From: Promethearchaeota archaeon | GTDB taxonomy: Archaea > Asgardarchaeota > Lokiarchaeia > Sigyniarchaeales > SOKP01 | Assembly: GCA_008080765.1 (NCBI GenBank) | Contig: SHMU01000001.1 | Span: 1,255 to 65,254 of the forward strand | Reading direction: 5' to 3' | DNA length: 64,000 nt | Shown here: one piece after another, positions 5,252 through 50,067 of the stretch | How the letters are laid out: each line of letters opens with the position of its first letter | Numbering within the stretch: position 1 is the first letter of the stretch | Notes under the pieces: generated by a model | Database searches by the model: none | What the model was told of the DNA's origin: nothing | What the model saw: only the letters and a program-made list of their open reading frames with translations | Made by a program: the position numbers and the translations under genes

Positions 5252-5406
5252 AGCAAAGCACCTTATTTTTGATATATTTATTATAAGATTATATTATTGT
5301 ATTATATACATAATGAATTGCCATTCTATATTATAATTAATTATTAAAATGATCTTAAGACATAGAAATAAAGATGAAAGAAAAAAAAGGAAATGAGAAA
5401 GACTCT

Positions 5407-16358: not shown

Positions 16359-16532
16359 TTATTTCTCGATATTGTCTTTGATAAAATTCACTATTTGAGA
16401 AGTCATTGAACCGGGTCCGAATACGTTAGCTACTCCCATTTTTTTTAATTCATCAAAGTCTTTTGCTGGAATAACACCCCCCAATAAAACCATGAACTCC
16501 TCTTTCATATTCTTCTCTTCCAATTTAGCCAT
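16359..16532 (-). pseudogene. truncated paralog of the methylmalonyl-CoA mutase B12-binding small subunit (C-terminal 57 codons only)
   Basis: Hand translation: MAKLEEKNMKEEFMVLLGGVIPAKDFDELKKMGVANVFGPGSMTSQIVNFIKDNIEK*. It aligns without gaps to the C-terminus of ORF 49649..50050 (41/57 aa and about 121/174 nt identical by hand count). The upstream in-frame sequence is unrelated and closed by TAA. Confidence 0.75.
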
Positions 16533-16824
16533 AAATTCCGTATACCCAAATGATAGAAATTATAAAAAAAAGTCTTCACGCTAAAGACCATACTTCAGAA
16601 GTGAATGGATTCAGCTAGGGCCCTATTTTTCGGATATTCCATTCGAGGTCTCAATTGATATATCCCCGCTACGGGACGATAAACTCTTCTTTAAATTCGA
16701 GGTCTTTGATGAGCTGGGCAATTCACGAATATATGATGGTCTGGATCAGTATATAATAAAAGATCTGGATAATCATAACAGTATATATACAATTTCGGGT
16801 ATTTTCGAAAACCAGATCTATGGA

Positions 16825-25800: not shown

Positions 25801-28800
25801 GATCATACTGCTTATACTCATTCTAATTATTTTATCGGGGGAAATACACATCTTAATTATCAAGGGCGTTCAGAATTGATCACTGAGAATCTAGAGGATT
25901 TAGTTAGAGACGACGGGAATGTTTTGATATCTGTTGAAAACTATTTAAATGCAAATTATGAATGGTTTGGTATATATTTGTGGACTGTTGCATGGCTAAT
26001 GCATAAACTTGACCAATTAATAGTAAAGCCGAGATATATAGCAGATGAGGACGTAAATGCCCATTTCACATTTGATCCTGCCATCACACAAGATAAGAAG
26101 TTCATTCTTGCTTTTAATTATGATGCGGGATTACAATATCTTGAATCTTATAATCAAGAGGACTATGATTTAAAAACTAATTCTGCATATTTAATGAACG
26201 GCGACGACATTTTTAAAGAACTCAAATTAGAAGGGGGGTTTGACGGAGAGAATTTTGAAAAGGTTGCTATGCCCATCTATAACCCGAATTTATGGATTGA
26301 TTTTAGAGAGGCTTATACGATTGATAATGTGGATTTAGATTATTTCTTTTTAGTCCGCAATGAAACAACTCCGGACGTAGAGGCTGCTTTCAGCCGTAAT
26401 ATTGGAAATGAGGAAACCGACGGCTTTTTTGACACATTCAATGCCTTGAGTGATACCTACGAGCAAGATTATGAGATCACTCTTGAATTTGAGTATGAAT
26501 ATAAACCAAATCCGGAATTAGATAGAGTTGATAGTGATAATACGTGGGGTTTAAATTCTTACACAAATGTATCCGTAGACGGACAAGAGCCTATTCAATT
26601 ACAGGTAAGTGAAAGTGCCGGTCAAAGCTTTATTTTCAGAAAGACGTTTAATTATACTTGGAATGGAAATGGGATTGATATCGATTTTCTTTTAAGCAAT
26701 ACCCAATTAAAAATTGAGAATCTAAATTATAGTATACAATTTATTGGTAGAAAAAAGGATACGACAGAGGATACCCGAATTTTAGGGCAAGAATTTTTTT
26801 ATGATTGTAATGGTCATGATAATATTACGGATTTAATTTCCGATGAGTTGGATGTTGACTATATCAAAGATAACGGGAGATTTTCTCTACGAATTAATTT
26901 GAGTTTATATGCTGAGTATGTTCCCCTATATGAATATCGACCGACCTTAAATATTTCTTTAGATATTTATGCCGACGGTCAATGGAGAAATAATATCTAT
27001 AATATAACCTACTACAATTATGGGGGTAAGGATTTAGCTAAGTTCAATATCCGTGACTTAATGGACAATAACGGATATACCACATTTGAGGATTATCGCG
27101 TGCATTTCTACACCAGCGGAGACGGAACGTCATTAACTATTCATAATGTTACCCTTATCGACTATGGAGACTTTTTAGAACCTCATACCCCTTATGACGA
27201 TATTTTTTATTCCGAGGATACGCCATTACAATGGAATTTATATTTAGATGATATGCAAGATACTATTATTGAGGAGGACAGATTTCTCTTAGGAGATGCA
27301 TACATCTATAATATGCAACCGATTCAAAATTATGGAACCTCCTCACAAATGCTATTTGGAAAGTATTGGAATGAATATTCAGATTCCACTTATATTGATG
27401 GTTCATATCATAATTATTGGTATAGTGATCCGAATATTGATAATCATGGGAGGGGATATGATACTCTCTTTAATTCCTATTATATGAAGTCGTACTATGA
27501 TAAGGGCGCTTTATTTACTTCTAATGCAGATGTCGCGCATCGTAGAGTGGTAAAGATTAACACTAATATTGAACTTTATGGAGAAGATAATGTTCACAAT
27601 TACCACGTTCCTTTCAGTTGGCGTGTATATAATATAATAGGACAGCTTCCGGATCAATATTCTGCGGATACTGTCAGAATCTATAACGACGAGCAAGAAG
27701 AATACGAAACATTAATCGAAGATAATTATGATTCATCAGCTTTTAGAACCATCAATATTGAGGATGAAGTAGATCATCCGATAACTGAATATATTAATGA
27801 GAAGGGAGAAATGTATATATATATACTACACTGGGGTAGAACAATTCAAACGGCTTGGTATAAACGGGAATGGGAAGGTAGAATTGATATCAGTGACTAT
27901 GATTCCTCTATTACATACGATTACTGGGACAATCCTGAGAATTATTATTCCTACCTACAGATGGATAAGTCTTCGGATTATTTTTCGGATGTTTTTCTGG
28001 ATACTCCTGAATTATATCTCTATTCAAGCAATCCGAATGTAATATACGATTCTCCTACAGAATTTCAGGTATTCTCTACCGATCCATTCTATGAGGATAC
28101 GATTACATGGACTAATAGACCTTCTATGGGAAATCTACTCATGTCCTCATCATATTCATATTCTCCCGAACAAGAATACCTAGTCGAATTGGGAGATTAT
28201 GACGGAGAATATGTTCTTATCAATCATACCGTACCTTCATACTCCCATCAATTGGGAGCCTTCTATACCAGAGAATCAGCAATAAATCAGCCCTATTCGA
28301 GGCAATATATAAGTAAATTTTATCAAAACGAGAAGCATGCCTATCTCCAAACCGATGAGTCGGAGGAATTAAAGATGCGTACAAGTGTATTGGACAGCCC
28401 TCTTACTATAAATCCAGGATCATACTTTATTATTGATTGCCAAGCCCGTACCGATAATATATATTTAGATTTAATTTTTGATGATGGGCAGGGTACTCCT
28501 TCTACACAAGCTACTTTAACCGTCTTAGACCAAAATACCAATTATCAAAATCAATCTATTAAGGTCTTTTATGAAGGAACAGAGGATCTCACCTTTAATG
28601 TTTTCCAGATCCGATCTACTATGGACGATAAAGATTATATCAAAGTATACGCTCTTCGAGTGAGCAATCCGCACGAATTTGAATCGCTTGAGACGGATTA
28701 TACCTCGAAGCTGGATCAATCATTCCGCATCTATTTAAGTGAGATTACCGATAATGATTTTATTGAAACTCTCACTCTTTATTACGCATTCAAATTAGAG

Positions 28801-31800
28801 ATTGATGTGGGAGAAGGTGTGGGCGATGCGGGTTCACACACAATCGAGAATTTTGCTCTTATGATCAAAGACTTTACTACGGACCAATTTATACCATTTA
28901 ATACCACTCCCAATAGAGGGAACTTTTCTCTTAATACGCTAAACATCGAGGATCCGAATTATTCACCGTATCTTTCTAAGGATGAGGAGGGCTATTATTT
29001 AGAATTTAAAGCTCAAGGAGAGTTAAAATACTATTGTAAAGATTTCTCTCTTCTCTTAGATGTCTTTAGAGCTAACTACACTTGGAAACGAATAGACGGT
29101 CCCGATGCCCGGGCAAGTTTCACGAAGGCATTTGATATTGACGGATTTTTGAATGCATTTGATAACGAAACATTTGCCGAGTTTTTACGGAAATACGATC
29201 TTCATATAACGTTTGATTATATATATACGATTGCAGATCCCGATTATGAAGGTTTTGCCAATATTTCCCTCAATAAATACGGTGTAAACGCCGAAATAAG
29301 CGATATATCAGGAAGTGGGCATTATGATTATATTACCGAATTCAATTCCGAATTTTATAATAATTTTAGTATTAATTTTACCCTGCAAAACGGCAACCTT
29401 TCCATTTCTAATTTACAAATAATGGCAACTTTTAAGGCTATTGATGGGGCATACGGACTAGATGATCATCGAATTTTAGAACAGAATTTTACCATCGATC
29501 CCGATCTCAGCTTAGATGAAATAGAGCGAACATTGGGCTTGTTATGGATGGATCTCAACTTCAGCCTTCAAGTAGATGAAAATGAGTATTTACAATATCG
29601 CACTCCGCATAATCTTACTCTTCTTCCTAAGGTATGTATTGATGGTATCTGGTATATTATTGGTACATATCACTATGATTCGGATATCGAATCTTTGAGT
29701 GTGCGATTTAATATTTCTGAGTTCATGAAAGATCATAATCTCTTAGATGGCGAAATCGAGGATATAAAAATTGAAATGATCGTTTCTGGTAATTCCACCA
29801 CATGTGTTCTTTCGGAGTTTGTTCTTTATGAACAACTTCCCGTAGAACCGGCAAACCTTAATTTCACTATGATAATACCTTTCAGAAATCATGAGCATTA
29901 TATAAAAGAACTCTGGTATTCTTATAAAGCCGCTTTTGATCAACCCATCAATCTGAGTATTTGGAATTATGATACCCAGCAATGGGAGGTGCTAACTAAA
30001 GAATCATATAAAGAAAATTACACTATTATCACTGAAGCATATTATGGAATAACTAATGAAGTTCGAATTAAAGTCTCGGCAGAAAGTTATCGCCGTTATT
30101 TCATGGATCAACCGTTCACATTAGCAGTTGATTTAATGAAGCTTATTGAGTATGACACACTAGAGATGTCAATACCAGAAATAACAATACCGTATGAAAA
30201 TGATTTTACTTTCTCAGGATGGGTATATCTTAATAATTCAATTTCAGATATGATAAGTACCCTTTATGGGGAATATACCTCTATAGGGTCCATCCATGAT
30301 GTTATTAATTATGTGGGAATTTCTTCAGAAGGCGCCATTGTATTTGATAAATGTAATCTTGCTGATGGCGATAATGTGACCAGTATCTCGGGTGTGATTC
30401 CTATTGGTGAATGGACTCATATTGTGGTTATTCAAAAAGCCAATACCGTGGTCTTTTATGTAAATGATGAATATCTTGGAACAGGGTCCTTCAGCAATGA
30501 GTATAACGGTTTTACACCCGATAAAATGAACATTGGAAGTGCCCTACAAGATAACTCACAAGGGCGATATAGAATAAATGGGTCTGTGAAAGATGTTAGA
30601 CTCTATAATTATACTATTGCCAGAGAAGATATTCGATGGCTCTATAATTTTGGAAAAGGACAAGTCACCACCCTTCAATATCGTCTCCCGCAACCGCGAA
30701 CTTTTGTTCCGAAAGAATATTTGAAAGTTATTGACCTCGTCTCGGGATATACTTCTGCATGGATTGAGTTTCACTCTTCACAAATATCACAATTTACCGA
30801 TCTTTATGCGTTAGGGATTGAAGATCTTCCTAAGCAGTTTCAATTATGTTATAAAGTTGTAGATTATGCGGGAAACACCATCATTAATACGACATATAAT
30901 GGTATGTTTACTGATATTATGTTTGAGAAAAATACTACCTTACAATGGCAAGATGATGATACCCTTATTGATTTAGGTAGTATTAATGAGCAAGAAAGAA
31001 CGCTCAATTTTACTGGAGAATTTGGAGGGGAAGATGTGGATATTACAATTAATGGATTTTCATTCGGAACTGCTCAATTTGATGAACAAACTCAGAGCTA
31101 TTCATTATCGTTCGGTACTGAAAATTCCATCGATACTCTTATTGGGTATTCGGATTCGTTATTAAGTCCAAAAATCTTTTCCAATATCAACCCTTATAAT
31201 TATGAAAATGTAGCTTGGGAGATTCGCGGACAAGATTTCTTCGGTGCCATCAAACACGTGCTAATCGAAGGAGATCTCGAGATCGTCAATCCTCTTACCT
31301 TTAATGATACAAAGGAATTAGAATTACAACATCTTTACGATAGAGGATTTATCCTCAGAAATTTTGTACGAATGCAACAAGTATATTATATTAATATTAC
31401 CACAGCACAGAAGCATATTATTTCTGTTGGAGACTTTTATCCCGATCGAGATGGAACGATTTATTTCCCTGAACATTCACAAATTCACGAATTATACAGC
31501 CATATTGATGAGATAGAAGGTGGTGTAGTATACTTCAATTATCAGAGCTCTCCGTTTGCGGAAAGCTTGCATAAAACGAATGCAGATGGCTTCTATATTC
31601 GTATCGCAATTCCCGATATACCGGAGCTTTATGAAAAACACACCACAGTCCAAAAACTTGCTATTAAATTTAATGATGCAACGGGCGAGTGTTTTGCGAG
31701 AACGTATTATGATTTAGATTTACGTCCCTATTTCTTAGAGGGTGTGAGAGAGCAATATCAGCAAACCATTTTCGGAATGGGACGTATGCTTTCCATCCCC

Positions 31801-34800
31801 TTGTATTTGGATATGAACGAGCTTGCTTTTTCGGCTCCCGATGCCTATTGGGATTTGAGTATATTAGATTCCATCTCTATAACAGTATCCGATCATTATC
31901 AATGGCCAGGATCTTTTATGGAAGTACACGGTGATAGCTCTGTACTTAACTTACCCTACCAGAAGATTGCCATACAAGATATTAAACTCTATAATCTCTT
32001 GGCAGATAATGTAATAGAGGATGAGCAAGGCTATATCACTTCCGAGATTCAAGTTGAAGCGCCCAATTATTACGGATATTATGCTCAAGATACCATCAAG
32101 ATTAAACGAGAAGAGATACAGCTGACAGATCTTACCCTTCTTATTAATAATGAAGAGGTGAGTGATTCTTGGGAAATACAATATAGCGATTATATGGAAT
32201 TGTATTTCACATATAACGGTCAAGACGATCGTATCCCCTTAGAAGAAATTTATCATATTCCGCTTTCTCTTTATGATGCGGATTCCGCACAAAAATACGA
32301 GTATGCTGTGGCAGACCTACATTGGATCAGTAAAATGGATCTTACCAGCCCACAAGGATATCTTACAAATTATTATTATTCTAAATTTAAGGCACCGGAT
32401 GACCTGGGTACCTTTAATCTCAGTTTTAGCAGTATTGGGTTGCCCATTTATAATATTGTTATTCCTAATGCCCCCTCCTATGAGGTAACGGTTATTCCAG
32501 AAGCACTTCATAAAAATACCCCTATTTATTTGGAAAAAGAAAATTTACGTGTGGAGTATGATAATGAACTAATTTTGAAAGGGTGTGTATTATCCGACGA
32601 TGAGATCTATGAAGTAGATCGGGTGTTACAATATAAATACGAAGAAGCACTCGATGGAGAGGCTTCCTATACTCTAGATTTAGAAGTTCCTTATGATTCC
32701 AGTAATTTTATGGATAAACAGCATTTTGCGTTATATTATCTCAATAAAAAGCTCGAAAAAGTTCCCTTATATGTAAATTTAGATGATGTCTATTTTGTTA
32801 ATGCTTCTATATTAAATACGGCATCTATTCCTGAAATTCGATATGTTAATCATCAATATACCTTACTTATTTATTGGAATACCGCATCCAAACACTTTAT
32901 CGATTATGATGCGAAACTTTTATTAACATATAAGCGAAACGGCAATCCCATTATACCCCTCAGTTACTCTTCTTTAGATTCATTAGGAAACGATCTTTTC
33001 AGCAGCTTAATAGAAGTACCCTTTGTACGATATGACTTACTCAATAAACAATGGCTCTCCGAAGATGATTTTGAAGAGAAATACACACTTACAACCAAAC
33101 TAGAACATACTGTTTTATTCCAAGAATCGGGTATAATCGAAGGTATCGCATTTAATATTTCCAACCAACTGATCACCTCAGATATTGTTCGATTCCAACA
33201 TGCTTATGTAAATCATTCCAATGGATTTATCGAGCCTCTGTCGGAAGATAATTATACCGTGTCTATCGATCCCGAAGGAAGGTTGCATTTTACCTATCAT
33301 AATTACTCGGTAGGAGATACTATTACTGTAGGATATCATACCTATATACCCATTCAGTTACAACATTCTCTTACTTCATCGAATTCTTACTTATACTCAA
33401 TGCGGATGTATTCTAATAATATGTCCTATTATATTGAGTTTACTCCCGATGATTATGTTCTTTCCCAAGATGGCTATGTTCTTTATTTTACCAATCTCTC
33501 TAAAATACTTTCAAATGACTCTTTTACTATCTATGACCCGATTTTCATTAACTATCATGCACCTCTCTCTCGAAAAGTTGATCTGGGTAATAATTTATTG
33601 TTAATGACGCAAGATTCTTTAGGACATTATCTTCCTATTGACAATATCCCCTTGGATAGTTTAGGATTCTTTGAATATGTCAATACCTTCTCTATGGAAC
33701 AGCTTTCCTTGCCTATGTTTGGAGAAACCTATGTTAATATGCGTCTTGATTATTTACCCACAACGATTTATAACAAGCTTGCTCAAGATTATGATCCCGT
33801 CAATTATATATTTAAGGGAAGAAAACGCTATGCTCATAAGGAAGGCGAATGGACTAATGATTTCAGAATTATTACTATTCCAAAACAAGTACGACTTACT
33901 CTGGTAGAGGATCCCACACAACCGACCGTAATATTTCAAGACCACACAGAAGATAAACACTACCAATTCAATCGCAATCCTATGGAAACGCTTGAGGAAG
34001 GTGAAGAATATACCGCCTTACAGATGGATTTATCGGCTAAGAAAACCTATATGTTTAAATATCAATTAGTCGATACTTTCGATAAACCTATAATTAATAG
34101 TATTGTATGGCTGCAAATTGGATTCATGCCAAAGAGTGCCACCCAATTCCTCAATCCACGTGCTATCATTGAGGATGGGACTTCTATTTATTATGAAAGC
34201 TTAGGCACGGAATTATATACAAGCAGAGGTCCAGGAGAAGGAGTTCATAAAATGTATGGGGCACCTACACTTTTTGATCTTGCTGAACCACAAGGTGAAT
34301 TCACCCAATACGGACCATATGTATGGACCTATTGCAAAACGAATGCTTTTGGAATCGCCGAATTTGACATCTCATTCGATCAACACTTTGTAGAAGATTT
34401 TAATACAATATTTGGTCAAGAGCATGCTATTGAGAGCGTTGATGATATTGTTCTTTATCATCGTGCCTTCTCTTCTTATTTTAAGTGGGACGAGATGGTA
34501 ATGGATCCCACAACTCTTATATGTTCAGAGTCTACTTCCAATGAAGTTTATAATGGTGAAAACAGACTTGAAAATTACAACTTTACCGACTTAGCAATTC
34601 AAGACAGTACCGCCGCAGAAGGAATCATCAGAATTCGAAAGAGAGATATCGTAGCAGCTCCTGCAAATAGATTAAGCTATAAATTTAATCTAAATCAAAC
34701 CTCCTTCGACCCTCTCTCTTTTACGATCTTTGCGAGTGAGGCAGATTTAATTCCTACTCCTCAAGGCACCACTATTAATTCATTAACCGCATTACATAGT

Positions 34801-35946
34801 GCCAGCGAATTAGAGGCGACGGGGCGCAATATTTTTGATGGCTCTTATCAATATACCGCGGCTGTACAATTTGTAAGCCCCAGCGGTTCTTTGATCGCCA
34901 ATCCTGAAAGTCCCTATGGCTCTTCTATGTTTTATTTTGATATCGAAGAGACTTTGGGAGGAGGAAAGATTACTATTTCCAATATAACCATGCTCTATCT
35001 TATTTCTCAAATTGGAATGGGTATGGCAACGATTAAAGCAGAAATCCTGGGCTCTCCTTATTATAAATCAAGCCCTCTTTTTAACATCCCGCTTGAATTT
35101 GTATTAGATAATAATATTAAGATAGGGGAGAAAAGTCTTGCCGTGGATCTCATTGATCCTTTTATCGCGGCATGGGGATCTGTATTTGATTCTGAGGGAC
35201 AAGAGATGCCCTTTGAATCTAATTATCCTTGGATTAAAGGTTCTGTGTGGATTGAGCCCGATTTCTTAGGAGAAGGAGAGGATTATGAACGAAGCATTCA
35301 GGACTATTTAGAGATTAATTTAGATGCCACCTTATATTATAACGAGACTTCCAATAGTACCTTCCCCTTGAGAAGTGGTATCATGCTCCGTCCCGGAAAT
35401 CGCGATGGCGTCTTTACTTTCGAGGTACCTTTAGGACCGGAAGAGTCATATATGTTTGGCTATAGATGTGATCTGAACCTCAGCTTTAGCATTGACTTTA
35501 GCAAGGATGTGATTTATTATCAAGAACGTGATGTAGAGATGTATCTTCTAGATTTGCGCTTAGAATCTAACCCTAGTTCTGTCAATCCGAAAACGCATTG
35601 GTCATTATATTCTCACGGAATTGAACCAGGAATAATAACCGATCCCTTCCTTAACATGCCTTTTGAGGTGAAAATGAGCGAGGGCTTCTCAAGCGATACA
35701 GGATTTCTTACTTTAGGGGCTGATACGGGTACTTCTGAGGATACCTATGGACAGCAGTTAGATTATCAATATAATGAGGAAAATAGTTGTTATGGAATTC
35801 AGAACATCTCAGAACAATTTGATACCGATCTCTTAGGACTTATCGATATTACACCAATTAAAGTTATCGGTATGAAAGACGGCAGAGAGTATGAATTCAT
35901 ATACGGAAGCGATTGGATTTTATGTAATCCTCCTGAAAGTTCCTAG
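16825..35946 (+). CDS. giant ORF 1 (6373 aa as called): mosaic surface-protein-like ORF; start uncertain
   Basis: Uninterrupted frame in AT-rich DNA. The called start is a TTG with no SD. The frame stays open and protein-like back to the stop at 16582..16584. No signal peptide. Recurrent Ig-like D-x-AGN motifs (18220..18240, 19225..19245, 30859..30879), two LamG domains and many N-x-S/T sequons. Confidence 0.8.
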   Translation: MDENNYIDINPRIFPFDNDLTHIIITTDYESFILDTKYISSGKTYFSDHENNIKINSIYYDIFSGEFTSIPLTVSLYQGDTLLSSNYFTLTATGVTFNDIIMVSNLSAVPDTTFPNNNIFMSFDTGADSYTNAHNIPYIVNSLYPTVEITNEYGEVIDTVILKPNSNGSRIELYSSINIAHNYFELPMPSSLLAGEELCDISYIEIAGIAYDFIYYVDDTSIIIKLATLDELTGPFDVNIEYSYSNSYLDNNQFVGSYDFQNLPQNYYTLTGTFYDISGAISEFTIPTLLCDYQPPVIFRQFDELISINPKYASISFYIHDASPIAGWWFAEQVDGIWTEQNNTYTFTFNDTSFTDGLYSFTLRANDTLGYSSSSTFSVYLDSETPIMTNFENHFEYFSGLYHCQVSVEDDSAVRVVLDHAINLETLEHYNITFSVFKLEGENTWDITFDTTQLPDGPYNLTLAIIDDAGNELVYVIADRVFDNSAPQLLDLYDEVYIEGELLYSSDLDDIVYFNDQKYLFLEAVDNIYGENITVEMHYSSPLELYSMQIEGSLDYNILSYKIIGYGSIYTEISQIIDIERLYIDGTDVAFTIDRTDEDFYIEISEDYQYLLTSENSESITGDLYIYRESIPLNYNTSKELWELTTPTQSYFNISEHMSIQFGDTFLFWYSLEDGVENRLLTSRYTGVYDNYMGLIDPDASFMLFPFANIDNEGILIFGADNALYHTVFLNLSHIVPSSSQTLDVARAYLYGSNTAEFSTVMPLGQAYQYYDDIWACAWNINDWDEGQIPSDIYYLKVLLVDNAGNYLSQINLTHIFNYEHIELISDVVFGDIFEFDANSPFNVYELTGAINTANNTELMSVICSYYSATQNQWIPIQTTSSELTVAGEYSTFNITWDMNYDYSFLNTLYTQSYAYLPMRIVNPFEIDTVWGSWGVFTDASYTESQPILLINNSGALDIQIFTFDPASGWLLNTTLSTVIDSISYSESDSYRVFDINHDGISEIIRLTPSSLDLMYYNHSSGWTIQENVTNTAPTDILLTYDLFYDESLGTTSCIVAYEHDSEYYLARYQINATIDEQIIIDTTYVSSYECEKMPTSVAFVENFNYASGIEIIVSKLDTGTYHSEVLKFNYDLSSSEPLYQNILGRIILIEHHLIDGYHTLFLGTDRYRIGKRDTVFALKYDFAMNAYVRYEITEIDATQLELIDIMAMKTETLDSLIMATDSGLFETIIDYTTDTDTIYDPCSFNTEIFSKTQLNIMGPALNPIIDVEFSPISDIISISYDLDNGYGWQPLGSEYYYYSPYSIKLLLSALWNELERVKIVYNYRTGVAEETQVFDPSFTVHEGFSDSTDISASSVFIHDYPSELVWLNPTTGYSDENAEWITLETEWYDRGLNYRMQPVRGEFEWLTESQYPRVRPEVYQTATLPLDASDEANISEIVPAIGEIIAVYGLTYSADQTLESNTLQKYPVFQWDIIESGQVISLERCPKKSLFENITINYLPSVNLYPVGDEYYFDNFTHNGIEYTNPYYMSNLQDDLTDYGTYIHPEQDLAYELVRDAFGIHVNFTDEGDPIGIPYGAMSYATVDDTPQSAIGITDYLLYQYEIMDEATPLLGGTLNISMNAGFNDIYYAELSQMALDYYNITITLFTLDENGQRTFIHSIEQEIDHSTLGFSSKDFIIHINEHTFTTQQLSLIKEALTRNSGNNLLVEVTTELDNVRVNAPSFKGHFAQEILSASFEAETLSTNMQYNGYTPQNTYLEIPHSNVRLTRINTSTYEFSDDVLKYDFKFVINHLYGYDLEISPDDYIFDASTNKITLTHEWTDFYGIITANITYLAFPWDYNYISTLEPMTFSFTGDFIENATQFLEIEVEYAPDGIPAYQFRDFDTQGRLTLYDESRSANMLEIYLYNYRTEMWERKECVVYSDYTGEMGNRKPTYSYIFDRNFIRFEDYFNEYSSQYELQALFIVNQEAKSSYYSEFSMDIVNITPRLYSHVPQSQCVLSPELEFSVDVSEFYDRSSVALYLEQLSLDLTYLSELTFLNNEIAEQHALIRDITHLYVKDLTGQYQELNMSAGIHFASDELESLIIHDYDAKTYYMQFKLRTQYSVLLYMNVGTNLQIQSLLQLVSYDLTTSSSSFTTKRISASEYNIPFELKEISMPNYAESDSGSEITLLDADSDADIGLINGFMRTAETKQRLMLKHSLHYNFTEAQFDMDIVLDDVYSDVRLNLLSPIGQLFEPQEKYISTEETFSVYTDSEVSLVELYYINETGHHILVSEMASSEDTTYYSYLWSAIDQDTELEDGRELTIKIYLEDQLGHSNEYYYTFITKFEDPTGEISVGVGSADYSQTPVNPFTSLSFENTEKQLIAYWPFDEDAGELIYEALSGDSSTLYNGDESVWAEGLSASCLHLDGIDDYVKINHNPHSEFGSEPFSISFWINPDSTDEGTIFDSTGVHIFFNQPNLTVHLTDIHEDLVDISVNQLIKTNVWSHVIITFNGSDIKIYIDRHETDAEITGNINALGILQTGITDIIGRYFSGSIDELMLFDFALNTEEIDYLFYQNEEGGVFSEANWWKSTYAFESWESLPQEVNIEPDSGTLTQEGDYSTLGYPSIFDSTLIEYTGPAERWIPDLSTTHDYYSYVTYPDYESMTPLFDSLSGITLYAQFPTATISESDWGSWNVASNSQFTSSGYDYNFNSFFNEQNSYDTITPIDGSSLDPSKLFSLDEEFSGIDSQSLTPHLITIDDMFTNSELYYRPDYFSHQYYLNPYEFDGSEYNRYDDNIEMVNAFPTYDIYEQFNPSEWIISANNSYITNSLDQGVDHTNLSSILNKIYPQSIDTNRAGFPDDENNDINFINYDVVNSFLRIQRDAYETQNKPHSHVFLYSGLHILSAINQIVQSSDGNPPWNVDKGDGYRGINQLAGQIGGSPMSQDFDYYTIDIDSADGQYGEYGYSDYSVLDRLYISSRHATGWVHDIFAGIRYGKDSIGTITIQKDDHTAYTHSNYFIGGNTHLNYQGRSELITENLEDLVRDDGNVLISVENYLNANYEWFGIYLWTVAWLMHKLDQLIVKPRYIADEDVNAHFTFDPAITQDKKFILAFNYDAGLQYLESYNQEDYDLKTNSAYLMNGDDIFKELKLEGGFDGENFEKVAMPIYNPNLWIDFREAYTIDNVDLDYFFLVRNETTPDVEAAFSRNIGNEETDGFFDTFNALSDTYEQDYEITLEFEYEYKPNPELDRVDSDNTWGLNSYTNVSVDGQEPIQLQVSESAGQSFIFRKTFNYTWNGNGIDIDFLLSNTQLKIENLNYSIQFIGRKKDTTEDTRILGQEFFYDCNGHDNITDLISDELDVDYIKDNGRFSLRINLSLYAEYVPLYEYRPTLNISLDIYADGQWRNNIYNITYYNYGGKDLAKFNIRDLMDNNGYTTFEDYRVHFYTSGDGTSLTIHNVTLIDYGDFLEPHTPYDDIFYSEDTPLQWNLYLDDMQDTIIEEDRFLLGDAYIYNMQPIQNYGTSSQMLFGKYWNEYSDSTYIDGSYHNYWYSDPNIDNHGRGYDTLFNSYYMKSYYDKGALFTSNADVAHRRVVKINTNIELYGEDNVHNYHVPFSWRVYNIIGQLPDQYSADTVRIYNDEQEEYETLIEDNYDSSAFRTINIEDEVDHPITEYINEKGEMYIYILHWGRTIQTAWYKREWEGRIDISDYDSSITYDYWDNPENYYSYLQMDKSSDYFSDVFLDTPELYLYSSNPNVIYDSPTEFQVFSTDPFYEDTITWTNRPSMGNLLMSSSYSYSPEQEYLVELGDYDGEYVLINHTVPSYSHQLGAFYTRESAINQPYSRQYISKFYQNEKHAYLQTDESEELKMRTSVLDSPLTINPGSYFIIDCQARTDNIYLDLIFDDGQGTPSTQATLTVLDQNTNYQNQSIKVFYEGTEDLTFNVFQIRSTMDDKDYIKVYALRVSNPHEFESLETDYTSKLDQSFRIYLSEITDNDFIETLTLYYAFKLEIDVGEGVGDAGSHTIENFALMIKDFTTDQFIPFNTTPNRGNFSLNTLNIEDPNYSPYLSKDEEGYYLEFKAQGELKYYCKDFSLLLDVFRANYTWKRIDGPDARASFTKAFDIDGFLNAFDNETFAEFLRKYDLHITFDYIYTIADPDYEGFANISLNKYGVNAEISDISGSGHYDYITEFNSEFYNNFSINFTLQNGNLSISNLQIMATFKAIDGAYGLDDHRILEQNFTIDPDLSLDEIERTLGLLWMDLNFSLQVDENEYLQYRTPHNLTLLPKVCIDGIWYIIGTYHYDSDIESLSVRFNISEFMKDHNLLDGEIEDIKIEMIVSGNSTTCVLSEFVLYEQLPVEPANLNFTMIIPFRNHEHYIKELWYSYKAAFDQPINLSIWNYDTQQWEVLTKESYKENYTIITEAYYGITNEVRIKVSAESYRRYFMDQPFTLAVDLMKLIEYDTLEMSIPEITIPYENDFTFSGWVYLNNSISDMISTLYGEYTSIGSIHDVINYVGISSEGAIVFDKCNLADGDNVTSISGVIPIGEWTHIVVIQKANTVVFYVNDEYLGTGSFSNEYNGFTPDKMNIGSALQDNSQGRYRINGSVKDVRLYNYTIAREDIRWLYNFGKGQVTTLQYRLPQPRTFVPKEYLKVIDLVSGYTSAWIEFHSSQISQFTDLYALGIEDLPKQFQLCYKVVDYAGNTIINTTYNGMFTDIMFEKNTTLQWQDDDTLIDLGSINEQERTLNFTGEFGGEDVDITINGFSFGTAQFDEQTQSYSLSFGTENSIDTLIGYSDSLLSPKIFSNINPYNYENVAWEIRGQDFFGAIKHVLIEGDLEIVNPLTFNDTKELELQHLYDRGFILRNFVRMQQVYYINITTAQKHIISVGDFYPDRDGTIYFPEHSQIHELYSHIDEIEGGVVYFNYQSSPFAESLHKTNADGFYIRIAIPDIPELYEKHTTVQKLAIKFNDATGECFARTYYDLDLRPYFLEGVREQYQQTIFGMGRMLSIPLYLDMNELAFSAPDAYWDLSILDSISITVSDHYQWPGSFMEVHGDSSVLNLPYQKIAIQDIKLYNLLADNVIEDEQGYITSEIQVEAPNYYGYYAQDTIKIKREEIQLTDLTLLINNEEVSDSWEIQYSDYMELYFTYNGQDDRIPLEEIYHIPLSLYDADSAQKYEYAVADLHWISKMDLTSPQGYLTNYYYSKFKAPDDLGTFNLSFSSIGLPIYNIVIPNAPSYEVTVIPEALHKNTPIYLEKENLRVEYDNELILKGCVLSDDEIYEVDRVLQYKYEEALDGEASYTLDLEVPYDSSNFMDKQHFALYYLNKKLEKVPLYVNLDDVYFVNASILNTASIPEIRYVNHQYTLLIYWNTASKHFIDYDAKLLLTYKRNGNPIIPLSYSSLDSLGNDLFSSLIEVPFVRYDLLNKQWLSEDDFEEKYTLTTKLEHTVLFQESGIIEGIAFNISNQLITSDIVRFQHAYVNHSNGFIEPLSEDNYTVSIDPEGRLHFTYHNYSVGDTITVGYHTYIPIQLQHSLTSSNSYLYSMRMYSNNMSYYIEFTPDDYVLSQDGYVLYFTNLSKILSNDSFTIYDPIFINYHAPLSRKVDLGNNLLLMTQDSLGHYLPIDNIPLDSLGFFEYVNTFSMEQLSLPMFGETYVNMRLDYLPTTIYNKLAQDYDPVNYIFKGRKRYAHKEGEWTNDFRIITIPKQVRLTLVEDPTQPTVIFQDHTEDKHYQFNRNPMETLEEGEEYTALQMDLSAKKTYMFKYQLVDTFDKPIINSIVWLQIGFMPKSATQFLNPRAIIEDGTSIYYESLGTELYTSRGPGEGVHKMYGAPTLFDLAEPQGEFTQYGPYVWTYCKTNAFGIAEFDISFDQHFVEDFNTIFGQEHAIESVDDIVLYHRAFSSYFKWDEMVMDPTTLICSESTSNEVYNGENRLENYNFTDLAIQDSTAAEGIIRIRKRDIVAAPANRLSYKFNLNQTSFDPLSFTIFASEADLIPTPQGTTINSLTALHSASELEATGRNIFDGSYQYTAAVQFVSPSGSLIANPESPYGSSMFYFDIEETLGGGKITISNITMLYLISQIGMGMATIKAEILGSPYYKSSPLFNIPLEFVLDNNIKIGEKSLAVDLIDPFIAAWGSVFDSEGQEMPFESNYPWIKGSVWIEPDFLGEGEDYERSIQDYLEINLDATLYYNETSNSTFPLRSGIMLRPGNRDGVFTFEVPLGPEESYMFGYRCDLNLSFSIDFSKDVIYYQERDVEMYLLDLRLESNPSSVNPKTHWSLYSHGIEPGIITDPFLNMPFEVKMSEGFSSDTGFLTLGADTGTSEDTYGQQLDYQYNEENSCYGIQNISEQFDTDLLGLIDITPIKVIGMKDGREYEFIYGSDWILCNPPESS
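23917..24498 (+). other. LamG / concanavalin-A-like lectin domain 1
   Basis: LIAYWPFDEDAG ... LHLDGIDDYVKI ... PFSISFWINP ... VWSHVIITFNGSDIKIYIDR ... GRYFSGSIDELMLFDFALNTEEIDYLF. Classic Laminin_G_3 pattern. Confidence 0.7.
26383..27175 (+). repeat. protein-level duplicated module, copy 1 (~260 aa)
   Basis: AAFSRNIGNEETDGFFDTFNALSDTYEQDYEITLEFEYEY ... LTIHNVTLIDY aligns by eye with copy 2 (ASFTKAFDIDGFLNAFDNETFAEFLRKYDLHITFDYIYTI ... CVLSEFVLYE). Confidence 0.6.
27292..28133 (+). other. possible DNRLRE/CBM96-like domain with large insertions
   Basis: Opens with GDAYIYNMQPIQNYGTSSQMLFG and closes with ELYLYSS...QVFSTDPFYEDTITWTNRP. This is the D-x-y-v...NYG...l.v / W.e..iTWnNrP pattern of that family. 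The spacing is much longer than usual. Confidence 0.3.
29113..29845 (+). repeat. protein-level duplicated module, copy 2 (~245 aa)
   Basis: See copy 1. Shared blocks include SNTQLKIENLNYSIQF / QNGNLSISNLQIMATF, RILGQEFFYD / RILEQNFTID and DGQWRNNIYNITYYNY / DGIWYIIGTYHYDSD. Confidence 0.6.
30181..30651 (+). other. LamG / concanavalin-A-like lectin domain 2
   Basis: ITIPYENDFTFSGWVYLNN ... GEWTHIVVIQKANTVVFYVNDEYLG ... INGSVKDVRLYNYTIAREDIRWLYNF. Confidence 0.6.
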
Positions 35947-35997
35947 GAGGAACGCTCTGTAATTCAGTTTACGGAAAATGGCAATAACCCCGATAGC

Positions 35998-38900
35998 ATG
36001 ACGGAATTCACAGTCTATTACCTCCTTGAGTTCGATTTTTCAGGACATCACTACGGTATTGTAGAGTTTGGAAATACATCTATGCTCAATGAGACTTCAA
36101 TTCAATTTGAACTGCCTTTTGGATTCCTTCCTAATATTAGTGACTCCCGAGCGCCCTTGTATACTCAATTTAGCGAACAATTTTCGCCAGATGGAGATAC
36201 GTATCGACTTCATTATGGTCTATACGGAAGTAATGATCCTGATAGTATTATAATCTATAATCTAGACCAGTTAGAAGAACAATTTAAATCAGAAATCGAT
36301 GTTCTCTTCTCGGACGAGACTAATGAAGAGTATTATGAGATTGATGTTGTTTTTACCACTCCTCCAAATGAACCGTTTACCCTCAGCTACGGATTAAAGT
36401 CCGAATATTCCTTAGGTGCGGGCTTTCAAAAGATTGGAGAGCCTTACTCTGAAAGTACTCGGCTTATCTATACTGAAGAAGAGGCAGGACAGTCTAAGAT
36501 TTTTACAGATACCACTAATATTTTATCACCTTATTCCTTCTCTGAATCGGCATTATATATTTCATTAGATAAGCAAGATAATAAAGAGACCACTCTAACA
36601 ATTTTTGATGTGCCTTTGCTTTATTCTCCCTCTATTAATTTAACCTTTATTATAGATGAGTTAGGCAAGACAATGATCGACCAATATACCTCATTAGAGA
36701 ACATATTGACTATTGATTTTACATATATGGATTCCAATGAATTATACGAGTTTTCCTCACCCTCATTAGAATTGCAGTTAACACCTTCTCAGCTCAGCTC
36801 ATACGAACAAGGGAATTCTTATATTATCACATATGAACAAGACCTTCAAGCGCTTTATGAAATCTTGGGGATGGACAATATTGATATCTCAATTACAATC
36901 TCACAAGAAGGCGATGTAAATAATTTACCTTATCTCCTTATGACACAATACGGCTATCTAACCGATGAGTATATTATTGAGACTCATGATAGTATGCCTC
37001 TTGATGAGAATGGAGAGCCTGATTATGCGGCAATTACTACCACTCCACACTTTTATCAGATTACCTCTCAAGACCTTACAGAAGCACCATTCAATCTACT
37101 TAGCGACTCGCAGATCACTGTAGCACTTACCAATCTTTCTGAGACGGAATTAGTATCATTGAACAGCGATAACGGAAAAATTGATTTTATCTCACATGGA
37201 ACTAAGAAAACGTTTACCCTTTCCGAACAACAAGGGAATGCCGTACCGAATTTAGCATTATTTATCAACTGTTATGATATAGATATGCCGCAATATCAGG
37301 ACGGTTATTTAGATTTATATTATGGAAGTGGTACGGAAGTTGAAGGTGAAAAGCGCTCTACAAGCACCATAAGCATGACCGCAATTGGTACATGGCTTAA
37401 CTATCGTGCCAAGGTAGAGGATAATGTTATTTTGGGCTGGGACTCAACCTATGATTTTACGGACAAATTTTTAACAACGGATCGGATTACCGTATCGGGT
37501 AAAGTCTTTTATCACGCATTAGCAAATCTTTCTGAGAGCTCCGACGAATATCTTAATAAAATTCAAATGAAAGAGATTTTTGATAGTTATACCCGTGAAA
37601 TAGAATTCGGAATTCCCCTCCCCGAGCAATATGATATTGCAGATATTAGGGCAGTTGGACATCCGTATGAATATCATCTTAGCATCCAAGGATTTCCCGT
37701 AGAGTCTACGGATGAATATATGCAATATCTTGAAGCAGATGATCATGACAATTTCCCTGAGGATGAGTTTAACCAACCTACAAATCGTCTGCCTGACATC
37801 GATTTAGAGACGGGCAAGCTAAATTATGAGGTAGCAATTGACGAGAATGATTCTGCCTATCTTCTATTCTTTGTTCCGCTTACTACTATCTATGATTTAG
37901 GACTTTTAGATGGAAACGGTGATATCATGATCGATTTTCACGCTCATCAGACCTTTAGAGACGGGCAAGATTATTATATAAAAGAAAATTACGAAATTGA
38001 TGGTAATAATTATATCGAATGGGATTATACCTTAGTTTCAGGACATCCTTTTAAATTTCATCCTGATTTCAATGAAAATCATTACTTTACTGTAGAATAT
38101 TCAGCGTTAGAATGGAGTATTATGAAACAAATGTATATACACTATAAAACCGATTCATTCGTTTATCAACCCGAGACATTCCAAAATGTATCACTCTTTT
38201 ATCCGGGTGATGCCTCCATCGAAACTTTTGGGGTACGTAATACTATTCCCGAAGATCAACTTTTAGACGGTCATATCTTATTCCCAAGCGTTTATGTACT
38301 CACAGAGACTGATGAAAATAGTGATGAATATGAAGTACGACAGCTAAAAAATACTGCTATAGACTCAAAGCTTGTATATAAAACGCCCGATCCTTCCGAG
38401 CCGTGGAATTATACAATTGATTTTGAACAGATTGCTATCGCTTTAGCAGCGCAATATCCTGGAGAGCATTTGGTCAATCCCAGCTTTTTATCTGTGGAAG
38501 CGCATTATTATTCCGATCAATGGAGATATGAGCTTTCCAGCACACCGTTCAATTACGAATATCTTGAAAAAGATAGTAATTATCATCTAAAGCTTACTAT
38601 TAAAAATCCGGACGGTATTATTATCGATGAGAGATATTCCAATGAGACTGAAGAAATAGGACTAAATTATCATACTCAGGGGTTTGATACCTATGTGCAA
38701 GCTATTAGCAGTAATTATATTTACTTTAAAGAGGGTGTAATTGATAAAAACTCTACCATCGAGATTTCCTATCATTATAAGCTGCAACCCGGCTTACAAG
38801 AAAGAAAGCATTTTCTTATCTCAACGACTCCTTATACACAAGCTTTCAATACGGAATACTTACCAGGAGCTTCTAATAGTTCCAGTGCTATTTATAGAGA

Positions 38901-41900
38901 ACGCTACCGCAAACTAAGCGGAGGGTCGATAATAGCACCCTTCGATTATATGCTTTCCATCAATGAAACCTATAGTCTTTATCTTTCCTATCGTCTTAAT
39001 CAGCGAGACTATTTCCAGCATGAATATACAACCTCAGAAGGCGATTTAACGGGACTTGAGGGGTATCGTAAATTTGGGCTTCTCGATAGAAATCTACGGG
39101 ATACAGGTTTAGTGCGATTTGCGAAGGGGGCGGAAAAAGAATGTGTGAAAGTATATTTCTATAATTATCGTACTGATTTAGATTCGACATTCACCTCTAA
39201 AAAATATCCCTATATCGGGCTTTCTGAAGAGCAACAGATGCAACCGGTATACGGTACCACTCCTAAAATAGCTTTCTTAGATCCTTCTTTATATGAAGTA
39301 GATTCTCAGATGGTAGCAGTAAGTATTAAACAAGAAGCATTAGAATTAATCGAGCGAATGAATCCAAAAGACGATAAATTCTATATATCCTTTGTGCCTC
39401 AACCGCTTGATCTTGAATTATTAGCTTACAAGTTTCAATATCTCACTTCAGGAGATATTTTAGACTCATTAGACGTTCTTCATTGGGATGTACCAGAAAA
39501 GGACGATTTGGATGTATATCCCAATTTAGATGCTTATTATTATAAAGATAAAGAACTTTCCTCGATCGAACGAGTGGTATGTCATGCTTCTGAGCTTTCC
39601 ATATATCTGGAAGACGGACACTCTTTAGAGTTTGATGTAGAAGCCGAATTGCAAGCATACGATCCTGAGTTATTGAGTAAAATCCACGAAGGAAAATATG
39701 CTTCGATATTTATAAAAACTAATATTGAGAATTTAGAGAGCTTGGAGTCTTTACAAATACAACTTATTGATAAAGACGGGAATATATTAAACGATTATAC
39801 TCAGATAATATCTACGGAAGAGATTGATCTTAATGATTTTGAGTTACATATTAACTTACCTTCCTACGCAGATAACAAGTTAAAAATTATTAAATTCATT
39901 CCTATATTCCGCACTGACGATATTTATTCGTTAGAAAATAAAGTAGGTATATCTCAGTACGATCTAATTAAATGGGATGAAGAAGATGTGATAACTAATG
40001 AAACTTATCCATTCATGTTCTTTACATTAGAGACCAATCTTCAAATTAATGCTTCTCACGCGGGACGTGAATTTGCATATCTATTTAACAACAGATTAGA
40101 ACGTATTTATTTCCCAGAAGGAGTCTCCATCGAGTATACTAAAATATTCGATGATGATGGTAATCTTCTTCAATATGCATTAAAAATTCCGAAGGAGCAT
40201 ATTGATCCTCTAACAGGAGAAAATGCAACCTTCAGCAATGAAGATCTGCTTTTCTTGAAATATTATTCACCGGTGGAGCGTGCTATATCCTTAGGTATTG
40301 GGAAAATATATTTTGAACGAGCATTTGAAAATAATGAAAAATCGGAGTTCATGATGGTAAACGCCGAAAATCAGAATTACTTCTCTCAATTCGCCGAAAA
40401 TAACTTTGGCAGTGAAAATTACTGGTACGAGCAAGAGCTTCAAATCACTCCGTTCGATACGGAGCATACAGGAACCTTTAAGACCGCAAAATTGGATATT
40501 AATCTAAGTGCCTTAGAGGATGATGCCATTGACGGAAAAGTGCCCTTTAGCCATATTCTATTCACGGTGCCTCATCCATTATATGAACTGACTATTAACG
40601 AGATTCTCATCTTAAATCCCTCTCAAACTCACACTACCGAACACGGATCTACTTCGAGTAGATTATGGCAATATTCTGAAATTCAAGCATTTGCCGCAGG
40701 TAGTGACCCCGCTTACGATGAATATAAATTTAATTTTACTCAATCAGTTCCATTATTCTATAATGAATCGGATCCCGCCCAAGAATGGCTCAATTACATT
40801 AGAATTTTTGATGAGGATCAGAATTATTACTCGGTAGGGTTATTTGGTGATCAATATCAACTTCATTACGACCAAGAAAATAAATCGTTCTCGTGGAACC
40901 CCACTTTCAATCAATATCCTGTCTATTATGGCATGCAATTTGAAGAAGAATTGATGATCGATCCCAATCATACCCTTTATATCGAATATTGCTCCAATGA
41001 GTCGTGGAAAGAACCAATAGTTATTGAGGATGAAAATGTGGATCTTACTTCCATCTGGACCATCTACGATTTTATCCATACCTTACGCCCGCAATATTAC
41101 AATTGGTTTATTGACGAGCTCGGCTATGAAGATAATGAGTATTCATTAATGGATGATATTGATTATAATGTCACGCAATACCTCACCGAACAATTTACGG
41201 TGTATGATAACATTACAGAATATACTCATCAGTTCGATATAGGCAATTATTCCTTTACGGAAGATTATTTGAACTTAAGCCTCTCCCATGTAGTAGCGAT
41301 TACACCCGATTTTGAACAGATTCTTTTAAGCGATAATGAGAATTATACGATTACCTTTAATGCGGAAGGGAAGAATATCACCATCGAATCACTTCATCCT
41401 TATTCATATTTGAACGAATTTGATACAATTTCCGTGGTTCTTAACTTTAGCAGAGGTCCTATTAATTCGTTTACAGAACTGTACTTGACGGAAGACTTCT
41501 TTACGTCTCAACTCAACTATAGTGATGATCTCACTTCTACCTTTTATGACACCATCAATATCTATTATGAGACATTCTCTCAAGGATTTGACGGGGAAAT
41601 ATTATTCATGGAGAGCTCCTCTATTATCACCAGCGAGGATACTCTCTTTACTCCCATTAGCTACAGCTCGTTTAATGCTATTACTGATCAGCGATGGGTG
41701 TTAATGAATTATTATTCAGGAAATTTTGATAATTTCAAACTTTATTATGATGATTCTTCCATTTTCTATCAAGCGGATATCGATCAAGACGGTAAAATTG
41801 ACTTTAAGCATACACTCGATATTGATCGGGACGGAAAAATGGATATCATTCGCTATGGAGAAGAATCAAATAATGGGGAAATTATCTGGTATACGATTAT

Positions 41901-44900
41901 CCAAGCCTATGAAAGAATAGACTCAGAAGAGACTCATGAAATGGAGGACAAAAAGGAGACCAAATGGTTCGATATCAATGACAAAAATTTTGCCAATTAT
42001 GAATTTAATATTGCTGAATTATTCGGTGTGTGTCTTACAGGAGGCTTATTATTACCATATACGCTTGCTTCGATGATGATGCCTATAATGGATTATTATG
42101 CCATGAAAACTCTTCAAGAAGAGGTAATTAGGGACGAAACTATAGAATCTACCTATTATAGCATTAAAACCGATTATGATCGCGACGGATTACCAGATTA
42201 TCAAATGGATTATGAATCATATAAGAACGTGGTACAATATGAAGTCACGGAACATCATAAGACTCTCATTGCCGCCAAATATCAAGATGTTTTTATGTTC
42301 CTAACAGTATGGGTCGCAAAAAATATCGCTTCATTGGCTAATGAGCCCGTATATGATTTTGTGTTTAACGATTTTCTTACCGAATATCATCTTGACCATT
42401 GGGACTTTCGAGGGCTTCCACCCACAACACTTGCTCAACTTCCATTTATTTTATCTACCTATCGTAAGTATTATTGGGATATGACCAGCGAATATACCGA
42501 TAGTTTTACTTACGAACAGATAAAGATTATCGAATATGATGATCAAGGAGAGATTTCAGAATCAAGAATTTATAAAGATGATTTTAGAAACGATGAGATT
42601 GGGAATGTAGCTCAATTCTTATCCAATTTAATCGAGGAACACCGTGTCACGAATGTAGAGACCGGTGAACAACTTAGCATATCCTTTAATCCTAATCTTC
42701 CTTTCTCACGACCTGAAGATATTGATTGGGAATGCGAAGTATGGGGAGTCGATGGAGTTCCCATTAAATTTGACTCTCTTACCGTATTAGGCGGTGATGG
42801 ATTAGAGGTTATCGATGAGACTAATGTATATCAACAGGAAATTATCATTAGAATTCCTAATCGCTATTCTCTGTATAACGATTTTAGAAAGACAGCAATC
42901 TGGCAGGTCGCGAACATGGGATTTGCCGATTTTAAAGTGGAAGGAATTTTAGTCACTCCGCAAGACGGGAAGGTCTATATTACCAGCGATATGATCTGTC
43001 TTGCATGGGGAGTCGGGAAAGTGCCCGGCAAATATTTCTATGTAGACTCTACAGGAAATGGTTTTTATGATACTGTCTATATTGTAGCTGCTACACCTAC
43101 AGACACTTCAGGAACTCCCACGTATAAGGTCTTAGCCATCGGCTATAATTATGACGGAATCCACGATTTCAAGCCCTACGAGAAGATTTATCCGAAATCC
43201 CGCATTGAGTCCAATTTCTGGATGATGGCAATTCAGACCAATCGATTTGATGTCCATTGGACTTATCAATACGGCAACCTTATCCGAGAACCATTGTTAT
43301 GGCCCACCTTAGAAAGCCTCATTTGGAATTATTTCAAACCCGCCGATCACATTTTTGAGATTTGGAAGTCTACCGCCTTAGATTGGAACGGCAAATCTCT
43401 TCTTTATCATTACATAGAGACCACGAAATATTATGAAGCATGGTTCCAATATGGTACGCAATATTATGAAGACTTCTTTGAACAGACTTTTATGGGTACG
43501 GTGTCTTCGGCGCTAAGTGTCTTCACACAAATATCTGTCCAAATATCTTTTGGAATACTTAATGTTTTCGGCGCTGCAGCAATCGAGCGTATTGCCAACG
43601 CCGCCGGATCTGCAATATTTATTCTTACTTATACCTTAATGACCAAATTTTTCATGGATATAGACCGTCATGAAGTAATGTCAAAACAGAGAGCCTATAC
43701 CTATTATCCGTCAAAATATATCTTCAAGTTCGATCCTCAAAGTATGAACGAAAAATGCCTATATGATAAGCTGCTTGGAGATAGTATGGCGACTGCTCTG
43801 CTTGGGCATTACGGCGCATATTACACCACCGCAGTGGGCGAGTCAGAAGGATTTCAAGTAACCGCTGAGGTGATGGTTACTCCTCCTAATTATGCCAGAA
43901 TGATGACCGGCTGGCAAGGATTCTTCGAATTTTTAGGAATGAATTTAATCGCACCCGGTTCCCATCCCGCAATATATTACGGTTTAACGTTTGATCAGAT
44001 GAATTTAGATTGGTATGCTCTTACCAGCGAATTGCCTTTATATACGAGCCCCTTCCTTCTTTTCTTAAACAGTATGCTTTTCGGACCATATTATATGTAT
44101 CGTCAAAATACTCTGGGCGCGGTAGAGACTATTACCATGCTAAGAACCTTAAATCACCTAAACACGATTCAAGCCACCTCCATCGGCGGCGATCCCCGTT
44201 ATAGATTAGTAAATAGATATGAAGCACCTTACAATAGAATTTTACCTGAAAAAGGGTTATACTCTCCCGTAGTATTAAGTCCCGAATGGAATCAATATGC
44301 AGGCAATATAAAGGGAATGATGTATATTTGGGCTTTATGTCATGATTTCCCCTCAACAGTTGGATTAGGCTCCGAAAACACACTCACCGAGGTGGAAAAA
44401 CTCAAATATAAAGCGAAATTCATTATTAATCCTAATGGGTTCGAATATCCAATAGAATCCATTCAGATCAGTCTCATGCAACAAAATAAGAGAGGAGGTA
44501 TTTTTGCCAGCTCTGAGAATCTTATTAGCAATATTCAAGTACAAGAAGAAGATTTTGAAGTGATTGACGGTACCATCTATTTCACTAAGACATTAGATGA
44601 AATTGTCGCCGAACAATATAAAGGATACGAAGAATTACTTGCAGGAATCGATCCCGAGCAATATTTACTACATTATGGTATTAATATTATCTTTTCATTG
44701 ACTATTCCAGATACCAATAACGAGACCCATAAACTAGCACTTGCGCAAGCAACTCAGTTTGCGGTAATGGATTATTTCAATCAATACGTGCAAGCTCAGA
44801 CAATTGCTCAAATAAAATCCGAGATTGCCTATACGGAAACCTTAACATTCTGGTCTACTATCATGACCACCGCTCTTAGTTATTTCGGAGGCTGGGGTGC

Positions 44901-50050: not shown

Positions 50051-50067
50051 ATCTCTCACCTGAAATC

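Follow-up and report, generated by a model that had tools for sequence, protein, structure and literature searches.

The locus considered here raises the question of whether two giant open reading frames (ORFs), which lie end to end on the forward strand of a contig from the Promethearchaeota metagenome-assembled genome (MAG) Baja_Loki1 and are separated in one and the same frame by a single amber codon, represent two genes, one gene decoded through a stop, one gene misread during sequencing or assembly, or one gene broken by mutation. Throughout, the window denotes the whole stretch of 64,000 nucleotides (nt) of contig SHMU01000001.1 that was analysed. The evidence set out below makes it likely that a real, recent and lineage-specific nonsense mutation has occurred in one ancestral giant gene, an option that had been listed with three others in a preliminary description of the sequence, and that is now selected by the uninterrupted state of the corresponding sequence in 31 of 31 relatives and by the reproduction of the stop with a second assembler. 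The features that define the junction, with protein lengths in amino acids (aa), are as follows.

16825..35946, forward strand: ORF1, the N-terminal part of the giant gene, with a TTG start, a product of 6373 aa and the ending ...CNPPESS-TAG
16585..35943, forward strand: the N-terminal part of the giant frame, coding-like and free of stops from 16585, its first ATG, GTG or TTG being that at 16825
35944..35946, forward strand: the in-frame amber TAG, the sole internal stop, aligned with leucine in 22 of 31 relatives and with a stop in none
35946..35950, forward strand: a GGAGG that overlaps the G of the TAG and lies 47 nt from the ATG at 35998
35947..35997, forward strand: a 17-codon spacer, EERSVIQFTENGNNPDS, once part of the sequence coding for the giant protein, not an intergenic stretch
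35998..48612, forward strand: ORF2, the C-terminal part, with an ATG start, a TAA end and a product of 4204 aa, annotated as a separate coding sequence (CDS), TXT67761.1

Translation of 16825-48612 as one frame yielded 10,596 codons with the TAG as the only internal stop, and thereby confirmed both that ORF1 and ORF2 are joined in frame by a single amber codon and that the 17 codons following it are open as far as the ATG at 35998. The geometry of the junction is by itself unremarkable: the chance of a shared frame for two adjacent ORFs is 1/3, the probability of 17 open codons is approximately 0.3, and, at the giant gene's own codon frequencies, a start-type codon would be met no more than 18 codons away with P = 0.48, the value for an ATG alone being P = 0.28. 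The observation becomes meaningful because homology extends across the junction.

A junction query of 463 aa spanning the stop matched partial proteins of marine-sediment metagenomes, including the Loki's Castle LCGC14 data, and these continued through the junction at 37–44% identity. The loci scanned comprised 11 in Promethearchaeota MAGs and 21 from metagenomes, and the aligned-column counts reported here cover 31 Lokiarchaeial (Promethearchaeota) relatives. All 11 MAG loci were open in the matching frame over the whole 21 kb, their homologues remaining open for at least 7,100 codons, and each gave one collinear tblastn match through the junction with approximately 4300–5700 aligned positions at 33–41% identity; most of the 21 metagenome loci were likewise collinear through it. 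The collinearity of the giant protein with its relatives begins at about residue 4100–5300.

Examination of the homologous position in related genomes, which the preliminary description had proposed as a check, returned a sense codon in every one of the 31 relatives. Leucine occupied the TAG column in 22 of them (TTA in nine, CTA in six, TTG in five, CTC and CTT in one each), and the remainder carried Pro, Ser, Gly, Lys, Phe or Met. Around that column the window sequence SS-TAG-EERSVIQF aligned gap-free with GILxNDSVIxF and YTLEEQSTILF in relatives, and the spacer aligned gap-free to (L)xNDSVIxFxGxNxPDxG with the family motif S-x-I-x-F and the P-D pair preserved; the protein-like character previously ascribed to EERSVIQFTENGNNPDS is thus borne out by its retention of the S, I, F, P and D of the family sequence. 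In the relatives' alignment the stop is placed between the invariant W210 and F228. An AlphaFold2 (AF2) model of the homologue P0001, a low-confidence model built from nine sequences and used for local secondary structure near the junction alone, has beta strands flanking the aligned Leu225, with a local predicted local distance difference test (pLDDT) score of 59–79 and an overall score of 50; on this model the stop appears to interrupt a folded module, and not a linker or domain boundary.

As these alignments show, the giant gene is a single gene in the relatives, and both the stop and the ATG of ORF2 are unique to the Baja_Loki1 lineage. ORF1 and ORF2 are best explained as two parts of what was one ancestral gene, about 10,600 codons long, belonging to a giant family widespread in Lokiarchaeia. 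The stop lies one substitution from a conserved sense codon (TTG to TAG, a single T>A), and leucine TTG is most likely the ancestral codon at 35944.

Equivalent scrutiny of the start of ORF2 revealed no conserved start or ribosome-binding signal. In the relatives the column of its ATG was occupied by Gly in 13, Tyr in six, Asn in four, Phe in three and other residues in the rest, with Met in 0 of 31. As had been reported, no motif resembling a Shine–Dalgarno (SD) sequence was present near the ATG at 35998, a result confirmed over the 25 nt upstream (ggaaaatggcaataaccccgatagc), and none preceded any in-frame start across the 900 nt 3' of the TAG; the SD motifs cited earlier before 14361, 9569 and 59257 were all found. 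The missing SD at 35998 is not diagnostic alone, because about nine of roughly 20 window ORFs (~45%) also have none. The claim that ORF2 has no translation signal of its own therefore holds, on the better basis of the unconserved methionine than of SD absence. The GGAGG that had been said to overlap the TAG some 45 nt upstream of the ATG was located at 35946-35950, and was rejected as an SD for want of any canonical start 5–12 nt downstream, where the sole nearby candidate is an in-frame ATT at 35962. The giant gene contains 22 occurrences of GGAGG, the post hoc chance of one falling no more than 6 nt from a given site is approximately 0.9%, and the motif at the TAG is probably without function.

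The MAG Baja_Loki1 (SHMU00000000) comes from the uppermost centimetre of a lagoon with a salt crust in Baja California (Manoharan et al. 2019, PMC6737245). It was assembled with metaSPAdes from Illumina reads at 15.8x coverage and is 75% complete; its longest scaffold measures 69,370 nt (PMC6737245), and this is the scaffold on which the window lies. In the public record ORF2 stands as a separate CDS, TXT67761.1, under the name 'hypothetical protein BAJALOKI1v1_10024'. The Logan contig SRR10018917_282280, assembled from the single run SRR10018917, is 35,635 nt long and would correspond to window positions 7341-42975; its fetched first 17,905 nt were identical to the window, and its giant ORF, called with the same TTG as start, has a product whose length is exactly 6373 residues, whereas without the stop the product would have been 8717 residues and would have run to the contig end. 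The stop in this contig is deduced from the length of the called product and not from a direct reading of the codon. Since a second assembler operating on one run gives the 6373-residue ORF1, the stop is reproduced and an assembler artefact is excluded. The contig is unbroken at the stop and extends 7 kb beyond it, a continuity that would argue against a balanced polymorphism at the site. The stop is genuinely present in the sequenced population and is no artefact.

The contrary proposal, that the true codon is a sense codon misrepresented by a sequencing, consensus or assembly error and that the gene is intact in this genome, can draw on the origin of the sequence in a medium-quality short-read MAG at ~16x and on the metagenome contig L024 of a relative, whose single in-frame stop might just as well be an error. 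Consensus substitution errors at approximately 16x Illumina depth are very rare, the lesion is a frame-keeping substitution, and the algorithmically different Logan assembly arrives at the same ORF1 without a break at the site; the base-call error allowed for in the preliminary description is accordingly very unlikely. Programmed amber readthrough or recoding, whether by pyrrolysine (Pyl), a suppressor tRNA or near-cognate decoding, would generate products of 6373 and about 10,600 aa, and is favoured by a downstream frame that is wholly open and conserved and by the reported decoding of UAG as Pyl in the Asgard class Sifarchaeia (PMC9723677). A stop at the same position was found in 0 of 31 relatives, so that there is no conserved recoding site. 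No stimulatory RNA element was detected, the 131 nt around and after the stop folding in an ordinary manner by minimum free energy (z = −1.07, with 27 of 200 shuffles folding as well). Searches likewise returned no Rfam matches in the junction region or the whole window, no tRNA within the 64-kb window, and no Pyl-family matches among the window ORFs scanned, the search having covered the 64-kb window. TAG is an ordinary terminator in the window: it ends four of the 22 listed ORFs, three besides ORF1, and one TAG-ended ORF encodes an SDR whose Pfam domain finishes five residues before the stop. Such usage is unlike the low UAG use of most Pyl users, a rule to which Sifarchaeia are reported as an exception (PMC9723677), and Sifarchaeia are the only Asgard archaea for which a Pyl system is reported (Sun et al. 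2021, PMC9723677). The likeness to Pyl recoding in Sifarchaeia and methanogens (PMC9723677) extends to a UAG that lies in frame in an Asgard archaeon and has conserved coding sequence after it; the differences are that the UAG of the giant gene is unconserved in homologues, that the gene is not a methylamine methyltransferase, and that the window combines common use of TAG as a terminator with an absence of Pyl genes and tRNA. Programmed readthrough, which the preliminary description had also admitted, is thus left unsupported, and its probability is very slight.

A different possibility is that the nonsense mutation is real and its consequences are tolerated, the 4204-aa part still being made by termination-reinitiation or by internal initiation at the ATG at 35998 or later, so that the protein consists of two polypeptides, both under selection. 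In favour of this, the 12.6 kb of ORF2 are intact and contain neither a second stop nor a frameshift, ORF2 shows no raised divergence from the relatives, its ATG lies 51 nt after the stop, and many window ORFs do without an SD. Set against this are the ATG itself, which is unconserved in all 31 relatives and positioned as expected by chance (P = 0.28–0.48), the lack of an SD-like motif before in-frame starts within 900 nt, and a cut that falls inside a conserved beta-rich module and not at a domain boundary; moreover, the ORF1 product would be deprived of the sole hydrophobic segment of the protein, and the ORF2 product would have no signal sequence of its own. On balance a tolerated split is unlikely, though its probability is not negligible. 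A related and improbable variant would have regulated or leaky UAG readthrough, or reinitiation, supply an anchorless 6373-aa fragment together with a form of about 10,600 aa that is anchored in the membrane, or else with a separately initiated 4204-aa membrane part; if true, two products from one amber locus would be the first such Asgard case outside Pyl enzymes. That the two ORFs arose as separate genes and share a frame only by coincidence accords with the public annotation of ORF2 as a separate CDS and with the prior of 1/3 for a shared frame. This last of the four original options is refuted, to the point where its probability is practically nil, by a continuous and uninterrupted protein in 31 of 31 relatives, which aligns gap-free from the last part of ORF1 across the spacer into the beginning of ORF2.

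Returning to a real nonsense mutation in one giant gene, we infer the following course of events. In the Baja_Loki1 lineage a sense codon, most likely leucine TTG, would have become TAG by one T>A transversion. Ribosomes would now terminate at 35946 and release a 6373-aa fragment devoid of the anchor segment and C-terminal tail, and the 4204 downstream codons, which have neither a conserved start nor an SD and are not an independent gene, would yield little protein or none. The lesion is presumably young, given that there is no second stop or frameshift and that the spacer is still protein-like, and the stop, in combination with an apparently lost 5' end (see below), would place the giant gene at the very start of decay. 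In the giant gene 5.4% of single substitutions create a stop, and by our arithmetic the 4204 open codons cap the neutral divergence since the event at roughly 0.4–0.5%; the alternatives are a lesion of very recent date and continued selection on ORF2. The ratio of ORF2 to ORF1 identity to relatives was 0.89, compared with 0.73–0.92 in intact relatives, in what is a crude relative-rate test, insensitive at this divergence.

A number of considerations weigh against this account. The intact 4204 codons would also be expected if ORF2 were still expressed and under selection, and, with the closest relatives found only ~44% identical, the stop could be older within the lineage and tolerated. With some 45% of window ORFs devoid of an SD, its absence is weak as proof that ORF2 is untranslated; archaea also initiate on leaderless transcripts and by other modes, and a missing SD is no proof of an untranslated ORF. 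In addition, the Baja_Loki1 and Logan assemblies very probably share reads, and the support for the stop is at the level of assemblies.

Three observations concern the relatives themselves. Two paralogous copies of the giant gene, L003 and L005, occur on different contigs of one Promethearchaeota MAG (33X4), and both are open over 21 kb. Locus L024 (JABUBO010000111.1) has an in-frame TAA at 6355-6357, a site unrelated to that of the TAG, past which homology continues; it may be a sporadic interruption or an error. In locus L027 (LAZR01000573.1, positions 1-1933), a homologue of residues 8949-9527 lies inverted directly upstream of a homologue of residues 5870-7747, the explanation being a rearrangement in this Loki's Castle contig or its chimeric assembly. 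The L024 stop and the L027 rearrangement fit random damage to a very large target.

With regard to the encoded protein, Pfam matches in the N-terminal two-thirds comprised Laminin_G_3 twice (a ConA-like lectin fold), Big_13 (Ig-like) and a weak CBM96, and because of these lectin-like, Ig-like and weak CBM96 matches a surface protein is suggested. No signal peptide was visible at any candidate start of the giant gene. Two further features were located downstream of the stop.

45430..45500, forward strand: the sole strongly hydrophobic segment of the whole protein by the Kyte–Doolittle scale, within ORF2
46147..46326, forward strand: a ubiquitin-family domain in the C-terminal tail (Pfam PF00240, E = 1e-7)

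The hydrophobic segment carries a motif, G..M..P...FGSF.F, that is conserved in relatives, and is a probable membrane anchor. The ubiquitin domain follows it by approximately 240 aa; its best PDB match was a poly-ubiquitin chain with E = 2e-12, a value for the whole chain summed over repeats, and against single ubiquitin-like PDB chains the values were ~2e-3 and worse. Pfam did not detect the domain in the fetched parts of the relatives. Relative to most homologues, the giant protein has ~2,100 extra residues at about 2585–4700 (nt about 24340-30690), between two collinear blocks, and weak internal similarity of this insert to neighbouring segments suggests a lineage-specific module expansion; tandem DNA repeats are essentially absent from the giant gene. 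Within ORF2, about 1 kb of the giant gene (window 42975-43998) falls between the two Logan contigs of run SRR10018917 and is covered by neither, a gap that could stem from local strain variation or from a drop in coverage.

The 5' end of the giant gene presents a second anomaly. The 80 open codons of 16585-16824 that precede the first possible start were matched in only 263 of 100,000 shuffles (P about 0.003), and the codon-position GC of this interval agrees with that of the giant gene. On the other side of the opening of the frame lies the following remnant.

16359..16532, reverse strand: a remnant of a B12-binding domain, consisting of its C-terminal 57 aa, 72% identical to residues 91–147 of the complete copy at 49649-50092 on the reverse strand

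This remnant is 52 nt from the opening of the giant frame and on the opposite strand, with MeaB beyond it, and the Logan contig has the same arrangement of remnant and giant frame. Both divergent genes appear to be truncated at their 5' ends by one breakpoint, at 16533-16584, which suggests that the rearrangement also took the start of the giant gene. No homologues of the first 500 aa of the giant frame were found, and no fetched locus contained a match to window residues 1–1494; the N-terminal ~1500 aa have no detectable homologues.

The flanking genes are of archaeal-type acyl-CoA metabolism: a thiolase and its DUF35 partner, CoA-transferases, MeaB, methylmalonyl-CoA mutase, acyl-CoA dehydrogenase and ETF. 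Those upstream of the giant gene include MeaB, two CoA-transferase subunits and a corrinoid adenosyltransferase. The giant gene and a 174-aa ORF of no known family at 48723-49247 make up a 33-kb block, flanked by MeaB and the B12 remnant (15258-16235 side) and by a complete B12-domain gene with methylmalonyl-CoA mutase (49649-51768), on the reverse strand, and it looks as if this block interrupts or joins two paralogous mutase operons.

Comparison with known systems indicates that the locus is best described as a nonsense-interrupted gene annotated as two CDSs. Like other such genes, it has one in-frame stop in a sequence that is continuous in relatives, a downstream 'gene' that begins at the first chance ATG without signals of its own, and a record of two hypothetical proteins; it differs in the extent of its coding sequence, 31.8 kb with a single lesion, and in its host, an uncultured Lokiarchaeon. 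Asgard archaea are known to encode proteins of more than 10,000 aa (bioRxiv 10.1101/2023.11.21.568195; PMC8813620), and are reported to have the largest number of them among Archaea (West-Roberts et al. 2023, bioRxiv 10.1101/2023.11.21.568195). The restored gene, encoding about 10,600 aa, resembles them, with the difference that a stop interrupts it and that its 5' end is probably missing as well. The aloposons of Heimdallarchaeum carry the tandem giant genes Otus and Ephialtes, of 3,000–6,000 aa each (Wu et al. 2022, PMC8813620), and a neighbouring pair of giant ORFs (6373 and 4204 aa) encoded on the same strand of an Asgard genome bears a superficial likeness to them; however, the present pair is one gene in all relatives and not two distinct tandem genes. 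Aloposons also integrate at a tRNA downstream of the giants, whereas this window has no tRNA, and they possess four conserved upstream genes, including a MinD/ParA-like ATPase, where the present locus has MeaB, CoA-transferases and corrinoid adenosyltransferase. These are the grounds on which the two are set apart here.

The phenomenon is an ordinary one in an unusual gene. Its main value is for annotation, in that two Baja_Loki1 'hypothetical proteins', ORF2 (TXT67761.1) among them, are fragments of one gene of ~10,600 codons; wherever giant proteins are counted or orthogroups analysed in Asgard archaea, such pairs will be misfiled, and they are also open to confusion with tandem giant-gene elements. 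Very long genes are large mutational targets, and for a lone in-frame stop within one a lesion should be the first reading considered and recoding a later one. The giant family, with its lectin-like and Ig-like domains, its single conserved hydrophobic segment and, in this copy, its ubiquitin-family tail, may merit a study of its own.

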